Positions 23,301 to 54,238 of a stretch of DNA of 64,000 bases are shown one piece after another (the first letter of the stretch is position 1; every line of letters begins with the position of its first letter). The position numbers and the translations under genes were made by a program. Under the pieces are notes generated by a model. It saw only the letters and a program-made list of their open reading frames with translations, was not told where the DNA came from and did no database searches. Source of the stretch: an uncultured Gammaproteobacteria bacterium (GTDB lineage Bacteria; Pseudomonadota; Gammaproteobacteria; JAURND01); contig CAVQQD010000003.1 in the NCBI GenBank assembly GCA_963714975.1, positions 782,624-846,623 of the forward strand, read 5' to 3'.

Positions 23301-26300
23301 ACTATTGGTAGACCGATTGCAAATACTAAAATTTTTATTTTAGACGATAAAATGCAGCTTTTACCCGTAGGCATCACCGGAGAGTTGTACGTCACAGGAC
23401 ACGGTTTGGCAAAAGGATATTTAAATCGAGATGCACTGACTAAAAGTAAGTTTATACCTTGGGCTTTGGAGCATGGAACCAAAGAGGTATCTCAAATAGT
23501 GTATAAAACGGGTGACTTGGCTCGTTGGTTGCCTGATGGTAACCTAGAATATATGGGCCGAGTGGATGAACAAATTAAAATTTTAGGCTGTCGGGCAGAG
23601 TTAGGTGAACTGGAAGAAATAGCAGTAACGTATCCTAATATTTTACAAGCTGCGGCTTGTCTAGATACAACAGCCGAAAAAAACCAAATTAACCTCTTTT
23701 TTGTCAATAAAAGTGACCGCAATGCAATTGATATTGCAAAGTTTAATCGCTTTCTAAAAAAACAGGTCCCTCGCTACACTGTTCCCTCTAAAATAATTGA
23801 AGTAGCTCGATTTCCAAGAACCGTTAATGGGAAAATTGATAAAAATTTATTGCTCAAAAAAATGTTTTTCATTAAGCAACCAGTTATAGAACCTCCGTCG
23901 ATCAAAGAAACATTACTCCTGGAAATTTTTCAAAAGATACTGAGAATTGATTCACTCCATTTAGAGGATGACTTCTTTCTCCTGGGGGGTGACTCCATTT
24001 TAGCAATGCATTTGGTTTCCAAAATCAATGCATTAGGCTTCCATTGTTCCGTGCGAGATGTATTTGAAGCATCCACCATAAAAAAATTGGTCATAAGGTT
24101 ACATAAAAAAAATCCTATAGAACCGATTGCGCTATTATCCAAAGATTTTTCCTTAACTCCAATTCAGCGTTGGTTTTTTGCGCAATCTTTCAGGCATCCG
24201 AAGCAGTTTGTTCAAATTTGCTGGCTAGAATTTCAAAAACCCATTAATTCAGAATTACTCGTTTGCTGCTTGCGGGAAATTATTGAATGGCATGAAATTT
24301 TTCGTCTTCGCTTTAAAAAGAAAGAAGGAATTTGGCAACAATATTATGCTGATAAGGTTCATGAATCATGCACCGATTTTCCAGTTATCGATAACTCTTC
24401 GCTGGTAATTCAGGATTTTGCGAATGAGTGGGTGATGAATGTGGCCCAGGATTTTAATTTTGAGACAGGCTATCTACTCAAGGTGGCCTTAGTACGCCAG
24501 CAAGGGAAAATTACCCATTTACTCTTAGCAGCACATCATTTGATTATGGATGGTGTATCTTGGCAAATTTTCTTTGATGATTTGCAGAGTTTATATGCAG
24601 GATCGGAAAAAGAGGGTAATAATTGGCAAAAATTTGCCAATAGTACTTCCTATCAACAGTGGGTTTACGCGCTAGAAAACTATATAGTTTCTTCGCAATT
24701 TAAAGCAGAGCAAAGCCATTGGCAAGGTGTTGATCCATTTACGTACATTCCTATTGATCACCACCAAGGGACTAATACGGAAAAATCTGCAGAATATGTC
24801 ACCGTAACATTAACCGAGGAAGAAACTCAGCGTTTATTGCGCACACTCGCTAAAACGCATCACTTGAATACCGATGAAATTCTAATTGCCTTGTTGGCAA
24901 AGTCCCTCATGCGCTGGTGCCAAACAGATTGCATCACGCTGGATATTGAACGCCACGGTCGGGAAGAATTAACAACGGAAATTAATTTAACAGGCACTTT
25001 AGGTTGGTTTACTAGTCTATTTCCTCTGCGGTTAAGCTGTAATAAAAATTTATCGCTACTCGAAATCATCCAATCGGTTCAGCAGCAATTACAAACGGTA
25101 CCACGTCATGGCATTAGTTATGGGTTACAGCATTATTTTTCTGGAGAATGGAAGCCAAAATCCAGTCTGCATGAGGGTGAAAATTTTACATCCCTGCACG
25201 CTGGATCCCGGCATCCTGCCGGGACGACGGGCCGCATCGCCTTTAATTACTGGGGTCAATTGGATCAAGCTTTTGCACAAAATTTCTTCACTTTGGGTGA
25301 GTTAAAATTGTTATCGCATCCCGAAAATATTCGTCCCTATTTGATCACTATTGATGCCGTAATCAAAAATAAGCAACTGCAACTAAGTTGGGCTTATAGT
25401 CGCAACTTCCATCGCCATGAAACCATCCAAGATCTCGCGCAGAATTTTGTGACTGATCTTCGAAATTTATTAACAAACACTCAGTTACAAAAACCAAAAA
25501 TTAGCTATGCTTTGACCGCGGTTCAACAAGGGTTACTCTTTGAACAATGTCGCTTTCCGCAAGCGCATTATTATCAAGCACAAGCGTGTTGGGAGCTGAA
25601 ATTATCTGGTCATTTTGATGCCAAATTATTACAAGCCGCATGTCGCTTTTTAGTGCAGCGTCATGATGTGTTGCGAACTCGTTTTGTGGTGTCAGGGTCG
25701 CAAGAGCCCACGCAATTCGTTGAAGAATCTATGGAAGTGCCTTGTGACATAATAGATCTACAGCAAGCGAAAGACCCTGAAGTGCAACTCACAAAGTTTC
25801 GTCTTGCCGACCAAGCTGCTTTGATTCATTGGCAAGCAACATCCCTTTTACGTGTTCAAATAGTGCTGCTGCCTGAAAATCGCTGTTACTTAATTTTGCA
25901 TTTTAATCACATGATTTTAGATGGCTGGAGTTTTTCGATTTTAGTCAAAGAATTTCACCAGTATTGTCAGGCGCAACAACAAGGATTAGCGCTGAATTTG
26001 CCCCCTACTTATCCTTTTGCTGATTATGTCCACTGGTTGCAGCACCAGAGTTGGAGTGCAAGTCAGGCGTTTTGGAAAAATTATTTGGCTAAATTTAATG
26101 AACCTGTCAATTTAAAGGTCTTGGGATTATTCGATGCGACGGCTGAAAAAACCGAGCTCTCGCGATGCGAGTTTGTGTCAACTCCCTTGTCTTCTGAATT
26201 AGGTCAAAAATTACAGCATTTTTGCCAAATGCAGCACATCAGCTTAAACACATTCTTTCAAGCGTTATGGGGTATTTTATTGCACCGCTATACCCAGACC

Positions 26301-29300
26301 CCTGATATTGTGACGGGCATGACCGTGTCGGGACGCAATATTGACTTGCCTCAGATCCAAGAGCGGGTAGGATTATTTATTAATAGTATTCCCTTGCGAC
26401 AACAGTTTGTCCCTGAGATAACAGTGCTGGCTCACTTGCAACAATTGCAAAAGACTATTACGTGCTTAATTCCGCACAGCACCTTCCCTCTTGCCGCCAT
26501 TCAAGCCTGCTCTGCACTATCTACTGCAGAACATCCCTTGTTTGATAGTCTAGTCGTCTTTGAAAATTATCCCCAAGCAACCCAAGAGGAAATCGAATTT
26601 TGGGATCCAACTCATTATGGTTTGACTTTGCTTATTACTCAAGGTTCCTGTTTGAAGCTGAAATTAGGCTATGATTGCCAACGTATTAATATAGAACGAG
26701 TCCAAAATTTACTGGAACATTTACAACATCTTTTGACCGTAGTCTTAGACAATCCACAGCAACAGATTGCCCGCTTACCTTTATTGACTACAGCAGAATA
26801 TCAAAAGCTATTTGCTCCAACCCAAACTGTAGTAGTGCTGGAAAATGTGGTAAGTTGTTTTCAAAAACAAGTAGTTAGTTCTCCTCACCATCCCGCGCTA
26901 GTTTGGGAGGGTCAGGTCTTGAGTTATCAAGACTTAGAAAATCAATCCAATCAATTGGCGCATTATTTAGCGACATTTCCGCATCATGGTGAAATGCCGA
27001 TTGGAGTATGCTTACCCCGTTGTCCCGAATTAGTCATCAGTTTGCTCGCGATCTGGAAGATGGGGGGAGCTTATTTGCCTTTAAATCCTGACTATCCGAC
27101 GGCTCGATTGCAAAGTATAGTAGATAGCCATCAAGTGAATCTTTTAATTTCCAAGAACATGATTCAAAAACTTACCGTGAACCATCCGATATTGTTGGAT
27201 CAAGTTCAAGCGAGTATCTGTCAACAACCTACTTATTATCCTCAGCATAGGATTCAACTGACGGATTTGGCGGCCATTTTAACCACTTCAGGCACCACCG
27301 GTAATCCTAAAAGCATTGCCCAAGAACATAAAACACTGGCGAATCTTGTGCATTGGCAACATCATGCATTTGCTTCCTCAGCAAAAAGACGAGTGACGCA
27401 ATTAGCAGCAATGAATTTTGATGTTTCATTACAAGAAATAACTTATGCGCTTGCTCAGGGCGATACGCTATATATTGTGCCAGAAACTATCAAACAATCC
27501 CTGGCGGAATTACTACGCTTTTTAGCGATCAATAAAATTCAACAAGCATTTTTAACCACTGCTTTATTGGAAGTTTTTTGTGAAGCGGCCTTATTTTTTA
27601 AACCCAACTTAAACTATCTGACTGAGATTTATGTAGCAGGAGAGGCATTAAAAATCTCTGGCCCGATCAAACAATTTTTTTCGCAAAATCCTCATATAGA
27701 CTTGGTGAATGAATATGGACCGACGGAAACTCATGTAGTAGCGACTCATCGATTATCAGTAGATACCATCGATAATTGGCCTTATTTACCGCCCATTGGA
27801 CGCGCAATTGACAACATCCGCTTATATGTCTTAGATGCCCAGTTACAAGCCTTACCGATCGGTATTCCGGGTGAGCTGTATATAGGTGGCGTCAATTTAG
27901 CGCGTGGTTATCTCCACAATGACAAGCTCACCCAAGAAAAATTTGTCCCCAATCCCTTTGATCCTATTGGTACCTCACGCTTATATCGTACGGGTGATCA
28001 GGTTCAGTGGAATGCGGCAGGGGAATTACTTTATTTAGGCCGTTACGATGATCAAGTAAAAATTCGCGGTTTTCGTATTGATCCGCAAGAAATTGAAGAA
28101 GCCTTACTAACACATAGCACCATTCAACAATGTTTGGTGACTGTGATTTCAGAGGAAAAATCAGCGCAATTAGTGTGCTATTTTGTCCCTTCTGATAAAA
28201 ATGAAGATGCAGAAAGTTTACGCCACCCATTGCGAAAAATATTACCTGACCATTTAATTCCGACCTATTTTATCAGGTTACAGTCCTTTCCCTTAACACG
28301 CGTTGGCAAAATTGATCGGCAGGCACTACCCCGACCTGAGCAAAGGAATGCCATAAGTAATACCACTTTTCGTCACGCTTATGAGCAACAACTCGCCGAG
28401 TTGTGGTCCGAAATTCTCCTTTGCACTTGCATAGATCGAGAGGTATCTTTTTGGGCTTTGGGTGGTGACTCGATTAAAGCTTTGCGCTTATTATTCTTAA
28501 TTGAACATCATTTGCAAGTGACGTTATCGCTGCAGGATTTTTTTACAGCACCTTCCATTGCCCAGATGAGTGATCGCATTCGTTTGACACAAGCGGATAA
28601 GGTATTGCAAAATCAGTGGCAAACCCTAGATTTTAAAGGATGCCACTTACCTTCTCCCTTAGTGCCATTACAAACCACAGGAGAAAAAACACCGCTGTTT
28701 ATTATCCACCCGATTGGTGGCACAGTTTTTGCCTTTTTAGATTTGGTCCGTTATCTGGGAAATGAGCGACCTATTTATGGAATTCAAGACCCCAACGTAG
28801 CTGACAATAACCATATTTCTTTTTTTAAAAATTTAGAAGAATTAGCAGCCTATTATGTTTATGCATTGCGCAGTGTCCAGCCTCAGGGTCCTTATTTTTT
28901 GTCGGGTTGGTCCTTTGGTGCTACTGTTGCCTTTGAAATGGCGCGACAAATTCTCGCTAGTCATGAAAAAGTAGAATTTTTAGGCTTACTCGATGGTTGG
29001 GCGGCGTATCCCAGCGAATTGCAAAATGAAAAAACATTCAAACAACTCATTCAAAAACAATGTGATGACTTATACCAACAATTTCATCTCAATCAACTAA
29101 AAAATCCTGATTTCTGGGTGGAACTACAATGGCAACGCAGTGATCTGCTTTGGCGATATAAGTTAAGACCTGTAAACACAGCTATAACTTTATTTAAAGC
29201 GAAAGAAGGGATACCAGGATTTCATGAGTCGTATGAGAAAGATTATGGCTGGCATCAATTTACCACCAAGCCAGTAGAAGTGTATGAGGTTCCGGGGGAT

Positions 29301-29387
29301 CATGCTTCGATGTTTCAGGAACCTTATGTGCAATCTTTAGCTGGTGCAGTATCTGCTGCATTAAATGAGGGACATATGGTTCATTAG
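20367..29387 (+). CDS. Nonribosomal peptide synthetase, two modules with an N-terminal formyltransferase (F) domain: F - partial C - A1 - T1 - C - C(NHxxxDG) - A2 - T2 - TE
   Basis: The N-terminus is Fmt-like (..HDAPLPRYAGVHATSWAILNQE..). A-domain cores appear twice (YTSGTTGKPKGV / TSGTTGNPKSI, NAYGPTE / NEYGPTE, GELYVTGHGLAKGYLNR / GELYIGGVNLARGYLHND, YKTGDLARW / YRTGDQVQW). T domains are LGGDSILA and LGGDSIKA. C domains carry HHLIMDGVSW and NHMILDGWSF. The TE has GWSFGATVAFE. Confidence 0.85.
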   Translation: MAPNIFTCFIIGEDNLHLECAKIIQQQGQQIIGIISAYEAAELWALQQGIPHYASLAAAQEALNKTPFDYLFSIVNAQILPAAILNLPRQLAINFHDAPLPRYAGVHATSWAILNQEKTHGITWHVATETVDAGDILQQVMVPITEDETALSLNLKCYEAALQSFPELVKSLANHSYQRQPQDLRQRTYFGLHQKPAGDGWIDWNASAEDIERLFRATQFGSYPNRFTCPKFKLSFQPDEPSSQQGSWEDEFIITQLELLPEPSTVAPGTIVATTEEYWRVATATCDIAIRQICTLEGDAVILEGEGVLDQAHPSSGLRPPSPTRGEGVKLRAYEARAEISPLSFETLRSSGRMGGRGDLNSGGGDEAYWVSQWQSIEPAKIPFLNFNHLENKSSFLLPLWEKVAEGRMRGEPSEFTPHPPAYPEPVEGAPSPTRGEEVMPGMYERRYYHLQQWTLPTSLQKLLHQHYPTHDFNTLLLALWLVYFYRLGNQPNVGVLLQLPDQNASHPSDLDPGIHARTSLELPYFTVLQDGLHFGQVVSQLQDELQAMQQKGSYLRDIFYRYPILTEVKHAVFTAVVIGEINQLQKSRAALVLGISAKDYSLSWHVDQNCLTQEPYLKTILDQMPGHLETLLTAITTQPETPIADLVLLTPQEQQQILIDWNQTETDYPRDKTIPQLFEEQVQKHPNKIAVCFENQSLTYRELNQQANQLAHYLSQQGVVAETLVAICMERSIEMIIGILGILKAGGAYVPIDPEYPRARIKFIFEDCRAMFVLTQSRLAKKIHAITDGAVITVDKIKNIKIHNKESISLNFDSSQLAYVIYTSGTTGKPKGVLIKHQAVVNTVLAKLRKFAINHSDRILNFSTLSFDASVWEIFPCLFAGATLYLARKENLLPGSKLTHFLEKNKITIATLVPSILAITPPPSTSHLRIIISAGESCSKAVVKQWENVAIFVNAYGPTEFTICAAMAIVGKDANKITIGRPIANTKIFILDDKMQLLPVGITGELYVTGHGLAKGYLNRDALTKSKFIPWALEHGTKEVSQIVYKTGDLARWLPDGNLEYMGRVDEQIKILGCRAELGELEEIAVTYPNILQAAACLDTTAEKNQINLFFVNKSDRNAIDIAKFNRFLKKQVPRYTVPSKIIEVARFPRTVNGKIDKNLLLKKMFFIKQPVIEPPSIKETLLLEIFQKILRIDSLHLEDDFFLLGGDSILAMHLVSKINALGFHCSVRDVFEASTIKKLVIRLHKKNPIEPIALLSKDFSLTPIQRWFFAQSFRHPKQFVQICWLEFQKPINSELLVCCLREIIEWHEIFRLRFKKKEGIWQQYYADKVHESCTDFPVIDNSSLVIQDFANEWVMNVAQDFNFETGYLLKVALVRQQGKITHLLLAAHHLIMDGVSWQIFFDDLQSLYAGSEKEGNNWQKFANSTSYQQWVYALENYIVSSQFKAEQSHWQGVDPFTYIPIDHHQGTNTEKSAEYVTVTLTEEETQRLLRTLAKTHHLNTDEILIALLAKSLMRWCQTDCITLDIERHGREELTTEINLTGTLGWFTSLFPLRLSCNKNLSLLEIIQSVQQQLQTVPRHGISYGLQHYFSGEWKPKSSLHEGENFTSLHAGSRHPAGTTGRIAFNYWGQLDQAFAQNFFTLGELKLLSHPENIRPYLITIDAVIKNKQLQLSWAYSRNFHRHETIQDLAQNFVTDLRNLLTNTQLQKPKISYALTAVQQGLLFEQCRFPQAHYYQAQACWELKLSGHFDAKLLQAACRFLVQRHDVLRTRFVVSGSQEPTQFVEESMEVPCDIIDLQQAKDPEVQLTKFRLADQAALIHWQATSLLRVQIVLLPENRCYLILHFNHMILDGWSFSILVKEFHQYCQAQQQGLALNLPPTYPFADYVHWLQHQSWSASQAFWKNYLAKFNEPVNLKVLGLFDATAEKTELSRCEFVSTPLSSELGQKLQHFCQMQHISLNTFFQALWGILLHRYTQTPDIVTGMTVSGRNIDLPQIQERVGLFINSIPLRQQFVPEITVLAHLQQLQKTITCLIPHSTFPLAAIQACSALSTAEHPLFDSLVVFENYPQATQEEIEFWDPTHYGLTLLITQGSCLKLKLGYDCQRINIERVQNLLEHLQHLLTVVLDNPQQQIARLPLLTTAEYQKLFAPTQTVVVLENVVSCFQKQVVSSPHHPALVWEGQVLSYQDLENQSNQLAHYLATFPHHGEMPIGVCLPRCPELVISLLAIWKMGGAYLPLNPDYPTARLQSIVDSHQVNLLISKNMIQKLTVNHPILLDQVQASICQQPTYYPQHRIQLTDLAAILTTSGTTGNPKSIAQEHKTLANLVHWQHHAFASSAKRRVTQLAAMNFDVSLQEITYALAQGDTLYIVPETIKQSLAELLRFLAINKIQQAFLTTALLEVFCEAALFFKPNLNYLTEIYVAGEALKISGPIKQFFSQNPHIDLVNEYGPTETHVVATHRLSVDTIDNWPYLPPIGRAIDNIRLYVLDAQLQALPIGIPGELYIGGVNLARGYLHNDKLTQEKFVPNPFDPIGTSRLYRTGDQVQWNAAGELLYLGRYDDQVKIRGFRIDPQEIEEALLTHSTIQQCLVTVISEEKSAQLVCYFVPSDKNEDAESLRHPLRKILPDHLIPTYFIRLQSFPLTRVGKIDRQALPRPEQRNAISNTTFRHAYEQQLAELWSEILLCTCIDREVSFWALGGDSIKALRLLFLIEHHLQVTLSLQDFFTAPSIAQMSDRIRLTQADKVLQNQWQTLDFKGCHLPSPLVPLQTTGEKTPLFIIHPIGGTVFAFLDLVRYLGNERPIYGIQDPNVADNNHISFFKNLEELAAYYVYALRSVQPQGPYFLSGWSFGATVAFEMARQILASHEKVEFLGLLDGWAAYPSELQNEKTFKQLIQKQCDDLYQQFHLNQLKNPDFWVELQWQRSDLLWRYKLRPVNTAITLFKAKEGIPGFHESYEKDYGWHQFTTKPVEVYEVPGDHASMFQEPYVQSLAGAVSAALNEGHMVH
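21296..21700. repeat. Cluster of palindromic repeat elements inserted in-frame within the NRPS coding sequence (F-domain/C-domain linker)
   Basis: Three copies of a ~48-bp unit CACCCCTCATCCGGCCTTCGGCCACCTTCTCCCACAAGGGGAGAAGG lie at 21303-21350 and 21614-21686 (direct) and 21551-21598 (inverted). The family-1 core GACGCTTCGCTCCTCAGGACGAATGGGG is at 21404-21431. GGGGGGCAGGGGGGATTT is at 21427-21444. The ORF stays open and translates this stretch as low-complexity peptide (..PSPTRGEGV.. appears twice). Confidence 0.6.
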
Positions 29388-29436: not shown

Positions 29437-31530
29437 ATGCATCAAAAAGATCGACAATTAGCGATTTCTTCGATTTTCGAATATAGCCGTCAGCCTATGA
29501 TTATTTTAGCCTCAGATGGAAAAATAATTGATGCAAATAAGGCTGTTATCGATATGTATGAATTGCGAAACAACACTTTGCAGGGTGCAGATTATTTTGC
29601 TCTTTTAGAAAAATTGGAATTAACTCCTCCAGTAACAGATGAACAGCTAAAAATGCTGCTTCCTGGTAATCCTGCTATAAAGCAAATTGCAAAAATTGGT
29701 GTAAGTAATAAGAATTACGTAATCGAATGGTCTATTCATTCCCTGATTCTAGATTTGGAAAAAATTTATGTCATTTTAGGTACTGATATTACTGCCGAGG
29801 AAGAAGTAAAAGTACTTGAAGAAAGAGGTAGAGAACAAATAAAAATAATGGCTAAATTGAATCAAGAAGTCCTCGGTGTTTCTGCAAAAGAACACGGAGT
29901 GTTGGAGAAATACGCTCATTCCATTCGTCACCATTTAGAAAGCATTATTGCCTGTATGCCAGGAAATATATATTGGATGGATAAAGATTGTAATTATTTG
30001 GGTTGCAATAATAATGTTGCAAGGATTTTGCACCTGAATAATCCTACAGAAATTATTGGGTTAAGTTATGACGATATGGCTAGGCTTAAAGGAGTAGACC
30101 CGGAGGAGTATAAAAAATTCAAAGAAGATGATTTGGAAGTAATACGAACAGGCGAGCCAAAACTAAATACTGAGGAACCCCCCCTTACAGATGAAAATGG
30201 AAATGTAGTATATTTTTTAACTAGTCGTGTTCCATTAACCGATGAACAAAAGGAAGTAACAGGTGTAGTGGGTGTTTCTATTGATATTACGGAACGCAAA
30301 ATCCTAGAACAAAAACTTTCCAAAGCCTTGGAGGCCGCCGAAGCTTCCGATCGTGCTAAAACGGATTTTATCCAAAACATGAGTCACGATGTCAAAACGC
30401 CGCTGGCGGGTATTATTTCCATGGCGCACAGGATCGGCACGCAACTCGAGGAGCCCGATGCTCTCGAAGATAATTATGAAAATGTGCAGATGATTAAAAA
30501 TTCGGGTAGGCAATTGATAGAATTTTTTATGAATTGTTTAGAGATGGGGCGGATTGAAACGGGGGAGGTGGGACTTAGCAATGAAAATTTCAATCCCCAA
30601 ACCATAATGGATCAGCTTGTCGAGATGTTGACCCCTTCCATGAAACAAAAAGGCTTAGGATTTTATTCCACTTATGATCCCGCTATTCCTGAAATGGTGT
30701 ATGCCAGCGCGCCGGGATTTTATCGGATAATTTTAAATTTACTAGGCAATGCGATTAAATTTACTGAGGAAGGCTCGATAAGCATGGACATTCTCTTACA
30801 GAAAACTCGCGATGAAGACACTGGCAAAGACAAAGAGGAACTTTGTTTAAAAATCCGCGATACTGGCATGGGCATTCCCCAAGAAAAAATCGCTAGCATT
30901 TTCGACCGCTTTACGCGCTTAACGCCTTCCTATGAGGGTAAATTTGAGGGCCATGGGATTGGGCTGTATATTGTGCATAAATTTGTCACTTTGATGGGAG
31001 GAAAAATTGATGTGGACAGCGAAGTGGGTAAGGGCAGTTGCTTCACCATCACGTTTCCTTTTTTACCCGCCAAGGCATTCCTGAAACCGAGAGCAGTCAA
31101 GCCTAAGTTTACCAAGCTAGCTCCCCTTGGGGATGCTATCAGCGAGGATGAAGAAACTGGCCCGCGTATTTTGTTGGTCGAGGATAATCGGATGGCTCAA
31201 AAAGGCATGGAATCGATTCTCACGCACTTAGGTTATACGCTCGATATTGTGAATACAGGTAAAAAAGCCCTAGATATTTTTGAATTGGATAAATATGTGC
31301 TGATTATTACCGATATTGGATTAGATGATATGAGTGGGACGACAGTAGCAGCGCATATTCGTACTGCAGAAAAGGGTCGAAAAAATCCAGTGCCGATTGT
31401 GGCTCTGACGGCCCATAATGTTGAAAAAGTGCAAGCGGAATGTGCAGCAGTGGGCATTAATGGGGTATTGGAAAAGCCCCTGACTGAGGAAGCGGCTCAG
31501 GAGGTGTTGGATTGTTTTGTCCAGAAGTAA
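29437..31530 (+). CDS. Hybrid sensor histidine kinase (two PAS domains, HisKA, HATPase, C-terminal receiver)
   Basis: The ORF track opens this frame at 29365, overlapping the NRPS stop. The ATG at 29437 has an SD GGAGA 7 nt upstream, so it is the preferred start. The second PAS (IIACMPGNIYWMDKDCNYLGCNNNVARIL) is paralogous to the PAS of the 17254 HK. The H-box is HDVKTPLAGI. The receiver block is ILLVEDN...DIGLDDMSG...K. Confidence 0.85.
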   Translation: MHQKDRQLAISSIFEYSRQPMIILASDGKIIDANKAVIDMYELRNNTLQGADYFALLEKLELTPPVTDEQLKMLLPGNPAIKQIAKIGVSNKNYVIEWSIHSLILDLEKIYVILGTDITAEEEVKVLEERGREQIKIMAKLNQEVLGVSAKEHGVLEKYAHSIRHHLESIIACMPGNIYWMDKDCNYLGCNNNVARILHLNNPTEIIGLSYDDMARLKGVDPEEYKKFKEDDLEVIRTGEPKLNTEEPPLTDENGNVVYFLTSRVPLTDEQKEVTGVVGVSIDITERKILEQKLSKALEAAEASDRAKTDFIQNMSHDVKTPLAGIISMAHRIGTQLEEPDALEDNYENVQMIKNSGRQLIEFFMNCLEMGRIETGEVGLSNENFNPQTIMDQLVEMLTPSMKQKGLGFYSTYDPAIPEMVYASAPGFYRIILNLLGNAIKFTEEGSISMDILLQKTRDEDTGKDKEELCLKIRDTGMGIPQEKIASIFDRFTRLTPSYEGKFEGHGIGLYIVHKFVTLMGGKIDVDSEVGKGSCFTITFPFLPAKAFLKPRAVKPKFTKLAPLGDAISEDEETGPRILLVEDNRMAQKGMESILTHLGYTLDIVNTGKKALDIFELDKYVLIITDIGLDDMSGTTVAAHIRTAEKGRKNPVPIVALTAHNVEKVQAECAAVGINGVLEKPLTEEAAQEVLDCFVQK

Positions 31531-31543
31531 CCGCTTTCTCTCT

Positions 31544-31583
31544 AAATCCCCCCTTACCCCCCTTTTTCAAAGGGGGGGATTTA
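31544..31583. repeat. Family-2 palindromic element (AAATCCCCCC...GGGGGGGATTT) 14 nt downstream of the HK stop
   Basis: AAATCCCCCCTTACCCCCCTTTTTCAAAGGGGGGGATTT. The same architecture recurs at 57189-57268 and 60648-60795. Confidence 0.55.
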
Positions 31584-31861
31584 CGCTTGGGCGGTGGCGA
31601 GAAGATTTTAGTGTGGAGGTCACCATGGATGTCTTACGATACAATGAATTAAATATTTCCGCGGTAAAAAAGCAGTACGATACTGTCGTGGCTTTACTCC
31701 AACAAAATAATTTTGCAGCGAGTGGGGTCAAGCAATTCGTAGGAACACCGTTTTACTTAGTGCCTTTGGATTCAACCCAGGGCTTGTTGTTTCGAGTAGT
31801 TTCCCATTTTCCTTGCTGCTCAGGGTAGAGTAGGGGTGCATGGTCTTCCTGACCTTTTCTT

Positions 31862-32938
31862 TTAATCAGCCAAATTGCTTATCCATCCCCTTTGAGTCAA
31901 GATCTTAGCTGCTAAGGTGATCTGGCGCTCGGTAAATTGTTTTTTGCGTTTATTCCAGGCATAGGTTTGTTTCACTACATCGTCCAAGGTATGTGCAGAT
32001 TCTTGTTGCACTATCCAATGTACCGTAGATAATAACTCTAATCCAAATGATGATTCGAATCCTTCAACCAATTTTACAACCTGATCAAAACGTGTCCGAG
32101 TTTCGGCATGATTTTCAAGAAAAGCGCTAGCTGCTTCAACTGCACCCTGCCGCAACCTGAGCTGCTTGTTTGGATTATCACCACCGTCGACGTATCCTGA
32201 GATCAAATGTCCTTCAATGTCATTTAGTACATGACGCAAATTTTCAGCGTAAGGGCCATAGAGTCCTTTTACATAACGAAGTCGCAGTGGTTCACCAGCT
32301 ACCTGCATAAAATACATTAATTTTTGAACCTCTAGCAGCGTAACAAAAGGATCAAGTAAAGCGTTTAGATAGCGATGCATCAGTTGAACCAAAGTAGCTC
32401 GTCCCGCTGTCATTTTAGGAGCTTTTCGACTATAGGTTGTTTTTTCTCTGACAAACTCTGGTTCATAGATGATAATTTGGACATTTTTTAAGGGTTTTAA
32501 TGCCGCTATGATGAGTGGCTTAATTTGTGCCCATTTTAGTCCACCCAATCCGCTACCAAGGGGAGGGATTGCAATCGAGTGAATATTGTATTTACTGATG
32601 ACTGTGGCTAACGACTTAAGACCAGCTTCAATGTCTTCAATTCGGCTCTTATCTTTCCAATGTCGCTTAGTGGGGAAGTTGATGATATAGCGGGGAGTTC
32701 CTGGGTAAGTGGTTTCATACACAAACATGTGGCCTGGCTGCACTTCTGCGTGCTTACAGGCAGTGACATAAGCTTTGAAATTATCTGGAAATGTATTTTT
32801 GAATTGCAAAGCAATGCCACGACCCATGATGCCGACACAATTCACTGTGTTCACAATGGCTTCTGCATTTTCTTGCAAAATATCGCCTGTTTTGTACTCA
32901 ATCACTCTCATCCACCTCGTTAATATTAGTAGTACCAC
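31862..32938 (-). CDS. darG: DarG-like antitoxin: N-terminal macro domain (ADP-ribose hydrolase) plus C-terminal DarT-interaction domain
   Basis: The macrodomain motifs AIVNTVNCVGIMGRGIALQF and AIPPLGSGLGG are present. At 358 aa it matches DarG size, and it lies immediately downstream of and overlapping the darT-like ORF. Confidence 0.65.
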   Translation of the reverse strand: MVLLILTRWMRVIEYKTGDILQENAEAIVNTVNCVGIMGRGIALQFKNTFPDNFKAYVTACKHAEVQPGHMFVYETTYPGTPRYIINFPTKRHWKDKSRIEDIEAGLKSLATVISKYNIHSIAIPPLGSGLGGLKWAQIKPLIIAALKPLKNVQIIIYEPEFVREKTTYSRKAPKMTAGRATLVQLMHRYLNALLDPFVTLLEVQKLMYFMQVAGEPLRLRYVKGLYGPYAENLRHVLNDIEGHLISGYVDGGDNPNKQLRLRQGAVEAASAFLENHAETRTRFDQVVKLVEGFESSFGLELLSTVHWIVQQESAHTLDDVVKQTYAWNKRKKQFTERQITLAAKILTQRGWISNLAD

Positions 32939-33597
32939 TCAGGTATTATTTCAATGGATTGTGGATACTTAGTGGTAGCCTTGCTCAACTCCAGCGCCAC
33001 TTGTTGATATGTCGCACTTGATTTTACACCAATGCGATCGACCAGACACCATGGAAAAGAATGTTCCAGCAAAAATTCTGCTTGCTTACCTTCTTTTAAT
33101 ATTGGATTGCTATCACCACCCCACTGCTTAGCCAAAACAGCCTCCCAGTTAATTTCATTTAACCGAGTAAGGTCACAACGATCCTCAAAGTAATAAGAAC
33201 CTGCATTTGACAAAGTAAAGACCCAACGCTTCTTATTTGTTGCTGCCCAATTTATCGTACGAAGCAGGTCAGTTTCAAGGTGTATAATTGGTTCTTATCC
33301 GCCCTCGTAAATTAAATCCGGGTTCCCTTGGTGAATCACGTAAAGCATAATTGAGCGTGGACAGAAATAAAAAGGTACACATTGGCCTATATATAAGTCA
33401 GGATAACTCTTTAACTTAAGTTCCTTCAGACGACGCTGTTTGATTTTATTCATACCGATACTAGTGCCTAAAGATGAATATTTTGTAATCTGAGCGTCGC
33501 ACCAAAGATGATTGTCGGCGATGATAGAAGGCAAACGATCTACATGTAAAATATGATAAATTTTGGGATGTTCTGGAATAGCCATAGTTTCTCCCAT
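32926..33597 (-). pseudogene. darT: DarT-like (DUF4433) DNA ADP-ribosyltransferase toxin gene, disrupted; the two ORF-track pieces are 33295..33597 and 32926..33213
   Basis: The N-terminal piece (PEHPKIYHILHVDRLPSII...VPFYFCPRSIMLYVIHQGN) and the C-terminal piece (DLTRLNEINWEAV...KQAEFLLEHSFPWCLVDRIGV) both match conserved DarT blocks, including the catalytic-Glu AEFL motif. They sit in different frames, separated by ~80 nt. Confidence 0.6.
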
Positions 33598-33654
33598 GGG
33601 CTAGCGTTTAATAGCAATTTAGGCGCTCAATTTTCACGAATTGGTTAATTCTAC

Positions 33655-33905
33655 ATTGTTTCATTATTAGTTGGCTGCTCCTTCAGCTGTTTTATTCCCG
33701 CTGCCGTCAGCATAGCATTTGTCGCTTTTTCAACAGAAGCTCGCACAGGGTCTAGATCCAATCGTGCATAAATAGCCGTTGTTTGGGGCGACTTATGATT
33801 TAAGGATTTTCCAATGATAGTGAGAAGCGCCTGTACGAGCTTGCCAGCTTCCTAGGGTACGTCTTAGATCATGTATTCGTAGATCAGCAATACCAGCATC
33901 TTCAA
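33655..33905 (-). pseudogene. Tyrosine integrase C-terminal fragment (frameshifted remnant)
   Basis: Minus-strand translation gives ...IADLRIHDLRRTLGSWQARTGAS.. and, after a frameshift, ..IGKSLNHKSPQTTAIYARLDLDPVRASVEKA... These match the integrase box II and the C-terminal tyrosine region. There is no N-terminal part. Confidence 0.45.
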
Positions 33906-33949
33906 TTTTGCTAAGCAAGAAGGTGAGATTTCTGCCAATACAGCTGCCT

Positions 33950-34406
33950 ACTGCAAAGCAAGGTCACGCTTACCAGAAGAAGCTTTATCAGGATTAACAA
34001 GAGAGTCAGCAGAACAATTGGAAGGACGAACTCCATTAGAATGGTGATGGAGAGAACGGCATGTAAAATTAATTGATGGTTCATGTATATCAATGCCAGA
34101 TACTCCTGAAAATCAAGCCACCTATCCACAACCTGATACTCAAACTAAAGGAGTCGTTGGTTTGTGGAAATTAATTTGTTAGCCATCAAAAAAACCATGA
34201 AAATGGATGTTTTACGTGGGAAATCGCCTAAAATGGTACACAAGGAGGTTTGGGCGCATTTACTGGTTTATAACTTGGTTAGAAAAATAATGGCTCAAGC
34301 AGCAATCAAGCATAATAAAAATCCCCGCGAATTGAGCTTCAAATTAGCATTGCAAATTATTTTTGCATTTCGTCAGGCAAAAATTTTTTCTGAAAAAACG
34401 AAATAA
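33950..34406 (+). pseudogene. IS4-family transposase remnants (N-terminal and C-terminal fragments; the DDE core is deleted)
   Basis: Plus-strand translation of ~34030-34180 gives ...VKLIDGSCISMPDTPENQATYPQP.TQ.KGVVGL..., an IS4 N-terminal motif. The 80-aa ORF 34164..34406 ends ...EVWAHLLVYNLVRKIM..., an IS4 C-terminal motif. A stop lies between them. Confidence 0.5.
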
Positions 34407-34481
34407 TTTACAGTAAAATGCTTCAAGCAATTGCATATAAAAAAGTTGGAAATCGACCGGGGCGTAGTGAACCGCAAATGG

Positions 34482-34802
34482 TTAAGCGTCGGCCAAAATC
34501 TTTCCCTCGGCTGCAAAAACCAAGGAAATCCTACTATAAAAAAGTGAGCGCTTAAAATGACTATTTCTTAAGTTAGTGCCATTGGGTTTATTATCATCTA
34601 TCAAGCATTGTTTCCATTTATGCTTATTCAGCAAGGGTTGACAATAATCCACATGGGATCTAAATTCATCTTGAGAAATGATATCGAATCCATCTTCTCC
34701 GTTTCTGATCTGGCCTTTAGAGTCATGTGTACTAATCAAACAATCATCATAATCCAAACTAAGGGCTAAAATTTTTTTTGGCATACTATTGTATCTCTTC
34801 AT
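34482..34802 (-). CDS. Hypothetical small protein
   Basis: A 106-aa ORF in an AT-rich mobile-element-remnant region. No recognisable domain. Confidence 0.25.
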   Translation of the reverse strand: MKRYNSMPKKILALSLDYDDCLISTHDSKGQIRNGEDGFDIISQDEFRSHVDYCQPLLNKHKWKQCLIDDNKPNGTNLRNSHFKRSLFYSRISLVFAAEGKILADA

Positions 34803-35121
34803 CCTACGTTGTCATTTCATTGTTAAAAAATCATTTGAAGACCCCATGGACCCTATACAAGATTTTTTGTGCAAAATGAACAAAAATATGGCGAGAATAT
34901 TACACTATCCAGCAAATGTGTCAATTTAATGGGCGAAATATTGAAAGGGTGAGTAATGAAGTATCATTAGACGACATGAAAATCTTAGTGGAATGCGCGA
35001 CTTTTGCGCGATTCGGTGCTGCTCCACTCTGCTTTATTAGGCATTTGCAGTGGGGTGCCCGCCTAATACCTGCCAATAAGGTGTGCCTTCTACTGTTACA
35101 ATAATAATTTACCCCGTGGGT

Positions 35122-35148
35122 AAAAAGTTCCCCCTTAAGGGGGAACTT
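35122..35148 (-). terminator. Rho-independent terminator for the repeat-peptide gene
   Basis: Stem GTTCCCCC / GGGGGAAC (with an extra A-T pair) and a TTAA loop. On the minus strand the hairpin is followed by TTTTTA (plus-strand A-run at 35122-35126). It lies ~40 nt downstream of the stop at 35187. Confidence 0.5.
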
Positions 35149-35186
35149 TGCACACCACTTCTTCATTTTTTCCCTAAAAGACCCTA

Positions 35187-35447
35187 TTAAGGATAATAGG
35201 GATGATACGGATGTACGTACGGGTGGTAGTATGGATGATATGGGTAATAAGGATGATAGGGATGCACGTACGGATGGTAGTATGGATGATACGGATAATA
35301 GGGGTGATAGGGATGCACGTACGGATGATAGTACGGGTAATAAGAAACGGAAACACCAAGCTGGGCATAGCTCCCTAATGACGTAACCGCCAATAGACCA
35401 GCAGCCAAGGCCAAGGCAATCCGCTTTTTTAAAGAACCAAGTTTCAT
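35187..35447 (-). CDS. Secreted His/Tyr/Pro-rich tandem-repeat peptide
   Basis: Signal peptide MKLGSLKKRIALALAAGLLAVTSLGSYAQ, then YPYYHPYVHPYHPY repeated three times (42-nt DNA repeats), ending ..HPYYP. Followed by a terminator. Confidence 0.55.
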   Translation of the reverse strand: MKLGSLKKRIALALAAGLLAVTSLGSYAQLGVSVSYYPYYHPYVHPYHPYYPYHPYYHPYVHPYHPYYPYHPYYHPYVHPYHPYYP

Positions 35448-35681
35448 AGCAACCTCCTCTAAATCTTACTTGTGCCTTAAGTATAGTATTTTTTCGGGGG
35501 TTAATAGGGAATATTTGTATTTTTCTTGCACAATCTGTGCTTATTGGTAGGGAAGTTAGTCTATTCAGCCTACCGCTTCTGTAGTCTGGTTGAGATCTTT
35601 GAATAGTGTGCCAAATTCACAAATGAAAGCCAGATTAACAGCAGGCCCTAGTTAGTGTCAGTGGCAGGAAAGCAAAATTTT

Positions 35682-38600
35682 TTAGAAGGAGGCATAGGAA
35701 GTAGTGCTGCCTGTTGCCGTTGCGTTATCTCGTTTATTTTCTGCTACCGTTTTCAACACCCGATCAATAGTATTTGAGAGACGAGGGTGCAGGAAGTAAT
35801 TAGGTATTTTGGGATGCCGCAAGGCATTGCCCTCTGTTATTGCTTTGGGCAACCATGCGAAAAAATTTCTTGTTTCTTCAGCCGATACGTTATTGTCACG
35901 AAGTGTTTGCTCGAAATTTCCTGTTTTTTTGCTATTGGCTAACGCAGACAGAAAATGATTTGCTAACTGATACGTCAACGGCGCATTTTTCTCTAATAAT
36001 ATTCTTTCGCCTTTCATGCTGTGCCACAGCGTAAATATATCTGCTTCATTTATGGGTTGTTCTGAAGTGCAATGATCCATTAAATTTTTTAATGAGCCAT
36101 TGCGCTGCAATAACCATGCTAGTGAAAATGGGTCAGGTTCTGTTTGCGAGATATTAACCACTGTATTAATAAATTCATTGTATATTACATGCAGGTCGAG
36201 TAAATTTAGGTCCTGCAGTAAACTACGCCCATGGATTAAGTTATGCTGTAATGCGTCTAAGTGATCAAGTGATCCTTGCGAATAATAACGTTTTAATACC
36301 TGGGCAGTAAAATACATGCATCCTTGCTCAGCAAACATGCGCAGCGTGGGCGTGATTTTCTTAGTACTGATTGAAGTAATATCTTCTTCATGTTTTATTG
36401 CTGTAATAAAACGCCGGATTGCGGTTAAATTTTCACTAAATTGTGGAAATTTATCTTTGGAATCTTTTGGAAAAAATGTCGTCGAGCTGGTAGAGCTACT
36501 CCTTCTCCTGATACTAGAGGGAGTTGTTTTAGCATCCATGGGGATGGATGGTGAATAAATTCCTCGTAATTCAGATTCTATAGAAGCTCTTCTTTTCCTG
36601 TTACTATCAGGAGTGCTTCTAGATGCTATCGGGGGAGGGGTAACTGAATAAAGCTTTAAGGAATCGGATTCTGTAGACTTTCTTCTAGAAGTAGCTGTAG
36701 TTCTTCTTTGTTTTATTTCTTTTCCATCGGTGGACTGCAATGAAAAAGATTTGGTTCGCGGTCTTTCGGTGTGCGAACCTGTTAACTTTTTTTTCGAATT
36801 TTCATACTTCGGACTTAATGCTTTAAGTTTATCAGATATTGATTTTAACCGTGACTCCACGAAAGAGAAGTTTTTAAAGCTAATTTCATCTATGGCTTGT
36901 TGCTCATTAATCGCTTGTTTTTTTAATGCATCTGCATTTTCAAGAATTTCAGTTGTATCTCGTACAAATGTGCTATAATCATCGTAATAACGAGAAGTGC
37001 TATACTCGCTTGGCATAAATTCCATTCTACTATCTGAAATTTTTTTTGCTAGAGTAGCATACTCTTGCTCGGTATCTTCTATTATTTTTATTAAATCATT
37101 GATTTTTTCCTGCGGCACGGTTTTTTCCATAGTGTCGATTTTTTCTTTCTGTGAGTCATTCAATGTGGAAGAGGGTGGTGACAAAGGTGGTTGCACTGAA
37201 GTTTGATCTGTATCATCGGATGGAAGAGGTAGTTTCTGTGTTTTGGATTTTCGTTTTGGTGTCGGTTTTTGTTCACTGGTTCTTATCTCTTGCTGAGGTT
37301 TATGTTGTTTAAGGTTGGGCTTATTTTTAGATTTATTTAAAAAACAAAAGTATATAAAAGCGCCTATCCCTGCCACTACTGTCAATAGGGAAACGAAAAT
37401 AAAGGGGTTTTCATTTTTTGAAGTCTGGTGCTCGCTAGTTTCACTACTGTTAGGCTCAATCTGTGGATTTTCATAACACAGAAAGCTTGAATTTCTATGT
37501 GTTTCGATATAATTTTCTGTCAAAGGAGTTCTATAGAGATTCACAGATTGGTCGCGTTGTGTTTCAGCATAATTCTTTAGTAATTCAATCATAGGTAATG
37601 CAATCGTAGGAGGACGTCCAGAGAATTGAAGTGTACCAAGCGCTGTTTGGTCTTTCTTATTTTTTTTGTTAATAATATATGGGTTTTTTCTTATTATTTT
37701 TTTAACAAAATCAACGTTATGAAATAACACTGCCACATGCAAAATAGTATCTCCGTTGTTGTTTTTTACGTTAAGATCGATCCTGTCATCAGCTAATATT
37801 AATTTAGTGATAGCCATCCTATTAACAGTTTTTACAGCATAAAATAACGCAGTTTCGCCAACATTATCTTGCAAATTAATGTCCGTTCGAGTATTTCTTA
37901 GAATTGATTTTACTATGTTTTTTTGTCCTTTTAAGACAGCAACCATTAGTGCCGTCCGACTCTTTTCATTTTTTAGATTAGGGTTGGCACCTTTTCTCAG
38001 TATTTTTTTTATAATATCGTGGGAAGCAGAATATATAGCTATATGTAAAAGCGTATTTCCATCCCTATCTTTCTGATCTAGGTTAATTCTTTTATCATCT
38101 AACAACAAGTTAACAATATCTAAATCTAGATCTAGAGAGTTTAATTTCAAACTTACAAATATAGCAGAGTTATTTTGGTAGCCAAGGATATTAATGTCGG
38201 TATGAGGCTTATTCAGGAGCAGTTCTATTATGCCCCTATGTCTTTTTATAGTAGCATACATGAGCGCCGTAAAACCTGCGGTATCTTGTAGATTAGGATC
38301 CGCGCTTTTTTCCAATAATTTATCCACAATGTTTAAGTAACCATAATTTGCTGCCATCATTAATGCTGTCTCTCCTTTATTATTTTGTTTATTAATATCA
38401 GTGACTTGTTGTTCTAGTAGGTCAAAAGCGATTTTTGGTTTATGATCTTCAAGTGCCTGCATTAAGGGTGTATTTCCCTTGTTATCTTCTGTTTTCGTTG
38501 ATTGTTGTTTCGCATCTACTGTAGAAAAGAAGTAAGTATGTGTAGCAATAGCCAATGGTCTAATGCGCTCAGAGGGGTAAGTAGACAACTTGATGAGTTT

Positions 38601-39041
38601 GTTTTTTGTACGATAAATTAAGTGATCTAATGCGGCGTTAGTTTTACGCAGTAAGGTTGATTGCCTCACCCAGGTAATACCCAATAGGGGAAGAGAGATA
38701 GCTATATTTTTAGGGAAGGGAGACGTAGGGCCATTAATATAATGCTTGATCCCATGTAAGCAATTGATACATAACTCGGTATCCCAGTAATCCGGTGTAC
38801 GTGCAATATAATCTTGTAACGCCGTTATTAGATGTTTTACTGCGACATCATCGTTTTTTTCTATCTGGCCGTTACCTGCTATCGTATAATATTTGGAGAG
38901 TTTAGCAGCGACAAATTCAACTAAAGGTTGCACATCTTCGTCGGTTAAATCTTCATCTTCCTGAAAAATAAATTCTTGTAGGTTGAATTTATCTTGACTG
39001 CTTAGTATAAACTTAAAAGTTGCGGGTTCACTATCTTGCAT
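35682..39041 (-). CDS. Large ankyrin-repeat protein (about 9 ANK repeats) with one TM segment, a long Ser/Thr/Lys/Arg-rich region and a C-terminal domain of unknown function; effector-like
   Basis: ANK consensus blocks are present (GNTPLMQALE..., GETALMMAANYGYLNIVDKLLEKSADPNLQD..., GNTLLHIAIYSASHDIIKKILRKGANPNL...). The TM segment is FIFVSLLTVVAGIGAFIYFCF. The region is very AT-rich. Confidence 0.8.
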   Translation of the reverse strand: MQDSEPATFKFILSSQDKFNLQEFIFQEDEDLTDEDVQPLVEFVAAKLSKYYTIAGNGQIEKNDDVAVKHLITALQDYIARTPDYWDTELCINCLHGIKHYINGPTSPFPKNIAISLPLLGITWVRQSTLLRKTNAALDHLIYRTKNKLIKLSTYPSERIRPLAIATHTYFFSTVDAKQQSTKTEDNKGNTPLMQALEDHKPKIAFDLLEQQVTDINKQNNKGETALMMAANYGYLNIVDKLLEKSADPNLQDTAGFTALMYATIKRHRGIIELLLNKPHTDINILGYQNNSAIFVSLKLNSLDLDLDIVNLLLDDKRINLDQKDRDGNTLLHIAIYSASHDIIKKILRKGANPNLKNEKSRTALMVAVLKGQKNIVKSILRNTRTDINLQDNVGETALFYAVKTVNRMAITKLILADDRIDLNVKNNNGDTILHVAVLFHNVDFVKKIIRKNPYIINKKNKKDQTALGTLQFSGRPPTIALPMIELLKNYAETQRDQSVNLYRTPLTENYIETHRNSSFLCYENPQIEPNSSETSEHQTSKNENPFIFVSLLTVVAGIGAFIYFCFLNKSKNKPNLKQHKPQQEIRTSEQKPTPKRKSKTQKLPLPSDDTDQTSVQPPLSPPSSTLNDSQKEKIDTMEKTVPQEKINDLIKIIEDTEQEYATLAKKISDSRMEFMPSEYSTSRYYDDYSTFVRDTTEILENADALKKQAINEQQAIDEISFKNFSFVESRLKSISDKLKALSPKYENSKKKLTGSHTERPRTKSFSLQSTDGKEIKQRRTTATSRRKSTESDSLKLYSVTPPPIASRSTPDSNRKRRASIESELRGIYSPSIPMDAKTTPSSIRRRSSSTSSTTFFPKDSKDKFPQFSENLTAIRRFITAIKHEEDITSISTKKITPTLRMFAEQGCMYFTAQVLKRYYSQGSLDHLDALQHNLIHGRSLLQDLNLLDLHVIYNEFINTVVNISQTEPDPFSLAWLLQRNGSLKNLMDHCTSEQPINEADIFTLWHSMKGERILLEKNAPLTYQLANHFLSALANSKKTGNFEQTLRDNNVSAEETRNFFAWLPKAITEGNALRHPKIPNYFLHPRLSNTIDRVLKTVAENKRDNATATGSTTSYASF

Positions 39042-54184: not shown

Positions 54185-54238
54185 ATCATCTTATAGCTAA
54201 TTTGGGTAATGCTAACAATTTTTGTGCTAAAATACCAC

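Follow-up and report, generated by a model that had tools for sequence, protein, structure and literature searches.

The DarTG locus in a 64,000-nucleotide stretch of DNA from an uncultured Gammaproteobacteria bacterium (contig CAVQQD010000003.1; the whole stretch is hereafter called the window) raises the question whether this toxin-antitoxin system can still produce its toxin. An intact DarT uses NAD+ and halts replication, whereas the macrodomain of DarG reverses the modification and the C-terminal domain of DarG binds DarT. DarT is known to ADP-ribosylate thymidine in single-stranded DNA, and DarG to reverse this modification and to bind the toxin (PMC5179494, PMC11543638); protection against phages has been reported for both DarTG subfamilies (PMC11543638). 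All coordinates below are positions in the window. An integrase fragment, darT and darG follow each other in this 5' to 3' order on the minus strand. The region between approximately 31.6 and 34.8 kb probably represents a DarTG2 module in which darT was inactivated by a nonsense codon and darG remained intact, and which is located on a degraded, integrase-borne islet. The module is of a known type, and it is in an ordinary, common state of decay.

The features that carry this reading are the following:

32926..33585, minus strand: darT pseudogene, 219 codons in one frame, with a nonsense mutation at codon 97
33296-33294, minus strand: the TAA nonsense codon, in the context GGC GGA TAA GAA CCA (YEGG*EPIIHL)
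31862..32911, minus strand: darG, intact, 349 codons from ATG 32911, with the stop codon TAA at 31862-31864

Judged by sequence and architecture, the locus is assigned to the macrodomain-type DarTG2 systems. A DarT domain with the DarT catalytic residues, a macrodomain antitoxin with its lysine, the DarG C-terminal domain and the operon order were all found. One defining feature of DarTG2, an intact toxin gene, is lacking, the darT frame being interrupted by TAA at codon 97 of 219.

The nonsense codon in darT

The likely start of darT is the ATG at 33585 (MAIPEHPKIYHI...), which fits the N-termini of the relatives and is preceded by GGGAG; another in-frame ATG is located upstream of it, at 33597. 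The stop codon of the gene is at 32926-32928. The gene appears as two open reading frame (ORF) pieces, 33295-33597 and 32926-33213, which matched the Pfam DarT profile with E-values of 7e-26 (profile positions 1-79) and 4e-20 (profile positions 108-201), respectively. The distance between 33597 and 33213 is 384, that is 128 x 3, hence the two pieces are in the same frame, and translation from 33597 to 32926 yielded a single frame with exactly one internal stop, the TAA. The 27 codons between the pieces (EPIIHLETDLLRTINWAATNKKRWVFT) could also be aligned to DarT relatives. Taken separately, the pieces scored 102 and 82.9 bits with the NCBIfam DarT model (NF048013), both below the cut-off of 150. 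When the stop was read as Gln, the Pfam DarT profile (PF14487, DUF4433) was matched over its full length (197.1 bits, positions 1-201 of 201), the PADLOC DarT model was matched with an E-value of 2e-63, and the repaired protein aligned end to end with the Thermus DarT 7omv (E 2e-27) and with 13 relatives (60-67% identity). A frameshift in darT was considered and rejected, because an indel appears neither in the one-frame translation nor in the alignments, which reveal a nonsense codon instead. An earlier note on this DNA had described a disrupted DarT/DUF4433 gene, present as two ORF pieces with a KQAEFL block and split into two frames. The profile matches to both pieces, and to the full length once the stop was read through, bear out the disrupted gene and the DUF4433 assignment, but not the change of frame, which has to be replaced by one in-frame TAA.

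The TAA replaces the Gln of a conserved GGQxPIxHL motif. Gln occupies this position in all 13 aligned relatives, and in the Thermus DarT (7omv) the residue in the same column is the Gln of YQGGQEPILHL. Because CAA is the commonest Gln codon in the window (73% of Gln codons) and TAA is the commonest stop (it ends 16 of the 26 long ORFs, darT and darG among them), the simplest origin of the nonsense codon is a single C-to-T transition (CAA to TAA), with the standard genetic code.

The active site of DarT was mapped through the alignment with 7omv, whose chain numbering is offset by one, as verified at H119 and E160A. The active-site residues of Thermus DarT are R51, Y71, M78, H119 and E160 (PMC9967889; for the roles of the residues see also PMC5179494). 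R51, Y71, M78 and E160 correspond to R52, Y73, M80 and E170 in the DarT of the window, and all four are invariant in the 13 relatives. R52, Y73 and M80 precede the stop, and the catalytic glutamate E170, which is part of KQAEFL, follows it. The next possible restart codon is TTG 33213, 27 codons past the stop, and a product initiated there would lack the conserved PIxHLExDL...WxFT segment. With the stop located between the NAD-binding and polarising residues and the catalytic glutamate, neither piece is expected to be active, and by this mapping neither DarT product should have activity.

These positions also bear on the idea that the system is attenuated, with a trickle of toxin activity arising when the TAA is read through at a low level or when the two DarT pieces assemble. 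The only point that speaks for it is the perfect conservation of the two halves in the same frame. TAA is the main bona fide stop here, and TAA followed by G is an efficient termination context in E. coli. Moreover, a restart at the TTG would lose the conserved segment mentioned above, and the NAD-binding residues and the catalytic glutamate would reside on different polypeptides. We regard such an attenuated system as very unlikely.

As a measure of decay, the DarT and DarG proteins of 80 related loci were aligned, the columns with at least 95% conservation were counted, and the deviations were compared with the leave-one-out range of the relatives. The DarT of the window deviates at two of the 55 highly conserved columns, which is within the range of the intact relatives. 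Since darT is otherwise well conserved, the lesion is very recent, or it is possibly a base-call error or a minority allele. If the TAA came from an error in sequencing or in the consensus, or from a minority variant, the locus would be an intact, working DarTG2 system beside old mobile debris. This explanation draws on the facts that darT keeps every invariant residue, that it deviates no more than intact genes do, that one substitution separates it from an intact gene, and that the database genomes of the related lineage are long-read metagenome assemblies. Assemblies of this kind can carry systematic substitution errors. In consensus assemblies, however, substitution errors are rarer than indels; the stop is present in the deposited record, where gene calling listed the 96-residue N-terminal piece as a gene; the surrounding DNA is demonstrably in decay; and five of the 76 related loci described below independently have a dead darT with an intact darG, so this is a common state. 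On balance an error or minority variant seems improbable, and a genuine, recent nonsense mutation is the preferred reading. The statement of the earlier note that the locus documents the loss of the system is thus to be read as a deduction: there is no decay in darT beyond one codon, and separating a recent mutation from a base-call error would take the sequencing reads.

The intact darG gene and related loci

The darG ORF could be extended to GTG 32938, but the relatives align from ATG 32911 or from the alternative GTG 32905. These two starts are preceded by a GAGG Shine-Dalgarno sequence, and the start of darG is 14 nt past the darT stop codon. The product matched the NCBIfam DarG equivalog model NF048014 with 459.9 bits (cut-off 250) over profile positions 1-337 of 338, the PADLOC DarG model with an E-value of 2e-137, and the Pfam Macro profile with 84.9 bits. 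The N-terminal 150 residues match the macrodomains of the Thermus (5m31, E 4e-48) and M. tuberculosis (5m3i, E 5e-46) proteins, whereas residues 168-332 match the C-terminal domain of M. tuberculosis DarG, which was crystallised with DarT (7yk3_B, E 2e-23).

The numbering of Thermus DarG was fixed by N22, K29, H82 and W83 in the alignment with 5m31. The catalytic lysine of this protein is K80 (PMC5179494). Its equivalent is the Lys of FPTKRHW, which is kept in the window and in all 68 relatives. N22 and G119 of the Taq protein likewise have unchanged counterparts, and the position of K29 is occupied by Arg, as it is in 67 of the 68 relatives. At the level of conserved columns (at least 95%), the DarG of the window deviates at two of 121, again within the leave-one-out range of intact relatives. 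These matches identify the predicted product of darG as a macrodomain ADP-ribosyl-DNA glycohydrolase with a C-terminal DarT-binding domain. The intact macrodomain DarG of the earlier note is thereby confirmed, and its proposal that the toxin was inactivated while the hydrolase antitoxin was retained agrees with the data on every point that sequence can test.

The nearest DarG and DarT sequences are approximately 65% identical to those of the window, and most of them come from Alphaproteobacteria and from assorted metagenome bins. The frequency of toxin loss was determined in the 76 of the 80 related loci for which enough upstream DNA was available. In 69 of these, an intact darT is located directly upstream of darG, with a short gap. 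Five loci (approximately 7%) combine a full-length darG with a darT that is disrupted or largely deleted: darT has a frameshift in L021 and stops in L048, its N-terminal half is replaced in L043, and only the last 35-50 codons are left in L016 and L060. Both genes are degraded in two loci (L067 and L072), and an intact darT with a broken darG was found in none of the 76. The repeated finding of an intact darG beside a dead darT fits the expected order of toxin-antitoxin loss. For counts of DarTG systems made from DarG matches alone, the value of approximately 7% can serve as a rough base rate.

In locus coordinates, the darT remnants are at about 9300-10000 in L016, L021, L043 and L060, and at 4056-4718 in L048. 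The N-terminal half of darT in L043 was apparently replaced by an ORF for a type I restriction specificity subunit.

The same loci are relevant to the possibility that darT is dead and darG is under selection as a stand-alone hydrolase, which is compatible with toxin loss as such. In this role it would serve anti-addiction immunity to DarT toxins that arrive with plasmids, phages or competitors, or the repair of ADP-ribosylated DNA. The DarG of the window is fully conserved by the above measure, including the catalytic lysine, and darG has its own Shine-Dalgarno sequence. In L016 and L060, where darT is almost wholly deleted, darG is full length with three deviations each. It has also been described that non-cognate antitoxins protect from DarT toxicity (PMC11543638), and that phages use orphan DarG-like and NADAR antitoxins as counter-defence (PMC11825919, PMC13309987). 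On the other hand, with darT itself undecayed, the time may have been too short for neutral decay of darG, in which case its conservation is uninformative. An independent darG promoter was not predicted, and the approximately 370 nt of untranslated mRNA before darG could lower expression by polarity. The DarG proteins of four of the five loci with dead darT show 0-3 deviations and are as conserved as the rest, whereas the orphan darG of L048 has nine, the maximum seen. Conservation of darG in the loci with dead darT therefore does not separate recent orphaning from selection. We consider selection for a stand-alone hydrolase in the window unlikely. Its more general form, in which darG is kept as a free-standing glycohydrolase acting against incoming DarT or other DNA ADP-ribosylation and follows a general route of domestication, appears rather doubtful; if true, the recurrent state found in five of 76 loci would reflect this domestication of DarG.

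The degraded islet around darTG

A patch consisting of gene fragments and one intact gene, darG, fills the gap from 31530 to 35682, the latter being the position at which an ankyrin-repeat gene ends. Apart from darT and darG, the following features define it:

ends at 31530: hybrid sensor-kinase gene, which bounds one side of the patch
31625..31828, plus strand: ORF of 67 codons, convergent with darG; codons 1-61 (31625-31807) are the N-terminal stump of a helicase gene
33651..33925, minus strand: C-terminal fragment of a P4-like tyrosine integrase, about 90 codons, with one frameshift near 33823-33830
33883..34555, plus strand: remnant of an IS4-family transposase gene, with homology from about 33919 and multiple lesions
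34482..34802, minus strand: ORF of 106 codons, whose 3' end overlaps the IS4 C-terminal coding segment 34394-34552

The integrase fragment, with the stop codon TAG at 33651-33653, ends 65 nt before darT starts. Homology to integrases was found in two frames, 33796-33963 and 33654-33851. When the frames were joined by hand, the fragment covered positions 120-169 of the 172 in the Pfam Phage_integrase profile, with 33.7 bits against a cut-off of 27.1. Both the HDLRRT box and the catalytic tyrosine of AIYARL are retained. The fragment shares 75-88% identity with the C-terminal ends of integrases that, when full length, have an Arm-DNA-bind_3 domain (L083, L084). The N-terminal three quarters of the integrase are gone at the junction with the IS4 remnant. 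A complete tyrosine recombinase is thus not encoded here: the N-terminal domains and the rest of the catalytic domain are missing, and what is left is frameshifted once.

Most of the top database matches to the integrase fragment are short pieces. A family of short integrases was considered for the database matches of 74-156 residues and rejected, since these matches derive from integrases that are split or from genes truncated where a contig ends. In two unrelated genomes, close relatives of the integrase are split into overlapping ORFs, at 5108-6465 in L083 (298 + 154 residues) and at 5192-6399 in L084 (270 + 132 residues). These two contexts contain other cargo and no tRNA.

The IS4 remnant matched the NCBIfam IS4 model NF033592 at positions 59-138 (E 1e-14) and 285-332 (E 2e-11) of 332, so that roughly the first 58 positions of the profile and some 146 internal ones are missing. 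The lesions comprise an in-frame stop at 34045-34047, a change of frame where the deletion joins the two halves (about 34140-34180), and a further frameshift near 34394-34403. By tblastn, the remnant is 42-47% identical to annotated IS4 transposases on plasmids, and the two halves are 1070-1140 bp apart in intact copies as opposed to about 670 bp in the window. A complete IS4 element, with a DDE transposase and terminal inverted repeats, was not found; no terminal inverted repeats of the remnant were identified. The integrase homology stops at about 33915-33925, exactly where the plus-strand IS4 homology begins; a junction this clean points to a single deletion that took out both the left end of the IS and most of the integrase. 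The lesions of the integrase and of the IS4 element are multiple and independent, and the large deletions among them cannot be sequencing errors.

The gene stump on the other side of darG was characterized with phmmer against 1.84 billion representative proteins. There were 39 matches, nearly all of which aligned residues 1-61 with the N-termini of proteins of either 105-130 or 909-1394 residues. The long relatives, about 940-1070 residues in length, are SF1/UvrD-like helicases in which Pfam identified UvrD-helicase, AAA_19 and Ank (ankyrin-repeat) domains. The rest of the helicase gene is absent from the window, where full-length relatives matched only 31625-31807 by tblastn. A RelE/ParE identity of the 67-codon ORF was rejected, given that this ORF is what remains of the N-terminus of a helicase family member. 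Many of the 105-130-residue database members of this family resemble similar stumps; the closest one, P0370 (107 residues), is 87% identical. The 106-codon ORF 34482-34802 had no match in Pfam or NCBIfam; it may possibly be a gene truncated by the IS insertion.

These results substantiate the frameshifted integrase C-terminus (33654 to about 33925) and the IS4 fragments that the earlier note had reported, and with both genes damaged at multiple sites they sustain its view that the module sits on a degraded mobile element. Its extent, 31862-34406, was drawn too narrowly, as the IS4 remnant runs to about 34555 and the helicase stump is located beyond darG.

We infer the following order of events. 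The locus would originally have been a small integrase-borne islet with the integrase gene, darT and darG on the minus strand. An IS4 element probably landed upstream of darTG, and a later deletion may have taken the left part of the IS and about three quarters of the integrase, after which the IS would have decayed further. In darT, one nonsense mutation, most simply CAA to TAA at codon 97, would have made production of an active toxin impossible, while darG would have stayed complete with its own Shine-Dalgarno sequence and could still be expressed. Given the damage to the integrase and the IS and the dead darT, the locus should be immobile and no longer function as a toxin-antitoxin or abortive-infection system. 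Loss of darG first would be lethal, and for this reason loss of the toxin first is the only viable order.

Several observations weigh against this history. The evidence for toxin loss is a single base, with no decay in darT beyond that codon. The GC content of the islet (0.39-0.45) is the same as that of the flanks, and neither att-like direct repeats nor a nearby tRNA were found around it. A consensus promoter was not found upstream of darT, nor did the islet show a significant pattern of a promoter or terminator. No match to this integrase was found in the 80 related DarTG loci, so that the linkage of the integrase and darTG as one element is deduced from their adjacency. Finally, no orthologous copy was found above 67% identity (DarG against genome contigs) or 66% (repaired DarT against proteins). 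For lack of a close relative of darT or darG in the databases searched, there is no orthologous locus that would reveal the ancestral codon or the borders of the island. The same applies to the host: the closest database match of its TrpS is 76% identical, the TrpS neighbourhood in the nearest genome is not syntenic, and without a close sequenced relative and synteny the borders of the island are not definable by comparison. An Rfam search gave no match in the region.

Taking these points together with the lesions, which can be read directly from the DNA, we suggest that the locus be annotated as a DarTG2 module consisting of a darT pseudogene with a nonsense codon and an intact darG, accompanied by remnants of integrase, IS4 and helicase genes. 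Censuses of defence islands should leave it out of their count of active systems.

Some other features of the window were recorded. A hairpin with G6/C6 arms, CCCCCCTTTnnCAAAGGGGGG, occurs at 31557-31577, 57201-57221, 57233-57253, 60652-60672 and 60770-60790 (eight strand-matches at up to three mismatches, with 0.02 expected); one copy is just past the stop codon of the sensor-kinase gene and two are inside the 1388-codon ORF 54209-58375. The nonribosomal peptide synthetase ORF 20367-29387 (3006 codons) holds three palindromic REP/MITE-like copies, at 21299-21354, 21549-21604 (inverted) and 21612-21701. One arm pair of these measures 56 nt and is 93% complementary, and all copies are read through in frame, for example as PSPTRGEGV and EKVAEGRMRG. 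The 86-codon ORF 35187-35447 on the minus strand encodes an N-terminus that resembles a signal peptide and then contains three tandem repeats of 51 nt for a His/Tyr/Pro-rich motif (YHPYVHPYHPYYPYHPY), and had no Pfam match. The ORF 35682-39041 on the minus strand encodes an ankyrin-repeat protein of 1119 residues, which is a singleton cluster in the protein collection. It scored below threshold with Legionella Dot/Icm Ank effector models (best 93 bits, cut-off 500). Such weak matches of ankyrin-repeat proteins to Dot/Icm effector models suggest a putative intracellular, Legionellales-like lifestyle of the host.

Comparison with known systems

The mobile-element remnants are readily placed. The integrase fragment shares with P4-like (Arm-DNA-bind_3) integrases the catalytic box HDLRRT ... 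AIYARL at the identity given above, and differs from them in having lost the arm- and core-binding domains and most of the catalytic domain, and in being frameshifted. The IS4 remnant resembles IS4 elements in that the profile matches both ends of the transposase, but it has no N-terminus, no region of the second Asp of the DDE triad and no identifiable terminal repeats.

Among toxin-antitoxin systems, the locus is most like the DarTG2 systems of Thermus aquaticus, M. tuberculosis and EPEC (Jankevicius et al. 2016, PMC5179494), in which darT is followed by darG, with a gap of about 14 nt. As in the structurally characterized proteins (7omv, 5m31, 5m3i, 7yk3), there is a full-length DarT domain with the equivalents of the Arg, Tyr, Met and catalytic Glu, and DarG is predicted to combine a TARG1-like macrodomain containing the catalytic lysine with a C-terminal DarT-binding domain. 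The position of Thermus DarT H119 is occupied by Asn in the window, as it is in the M. tuberculosis protein, and that of H65 by Gly. Unlike the characterized systems, darT has a premature TAA at codon 97, and the proteins, known from their sequences, are only distantly related to them (phmmer E 2e-27 to Thermus DarT).

In having a gene for an antitoxin-type hydrolase without a working partner toxin, the locus resembles the orphan DarG and NADAR antitoxins (PMC11825919, PMC13309987). It differs from the orphan antitoxins of phages in that the toxin gene persists as a nearly pristine pseudogene and in that it resides on a bacterial chromosome; evidence for a counter-defence role of the darG gene in the window was not found. 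The closest parallel in terms of state is with decaying chromosomal toxin-antitoxin loci in general, in which the toxin is dead first, the antitoxin is intact, and integrase and IS sequences are fragmented. Compared with these, nothing is distinctive except the apparent recency of the toxin lesion. The locus thus represents a clean case of toxin-first decay in a toxin-antitoxin pair, the significance of which hardly extends beyond annotation.

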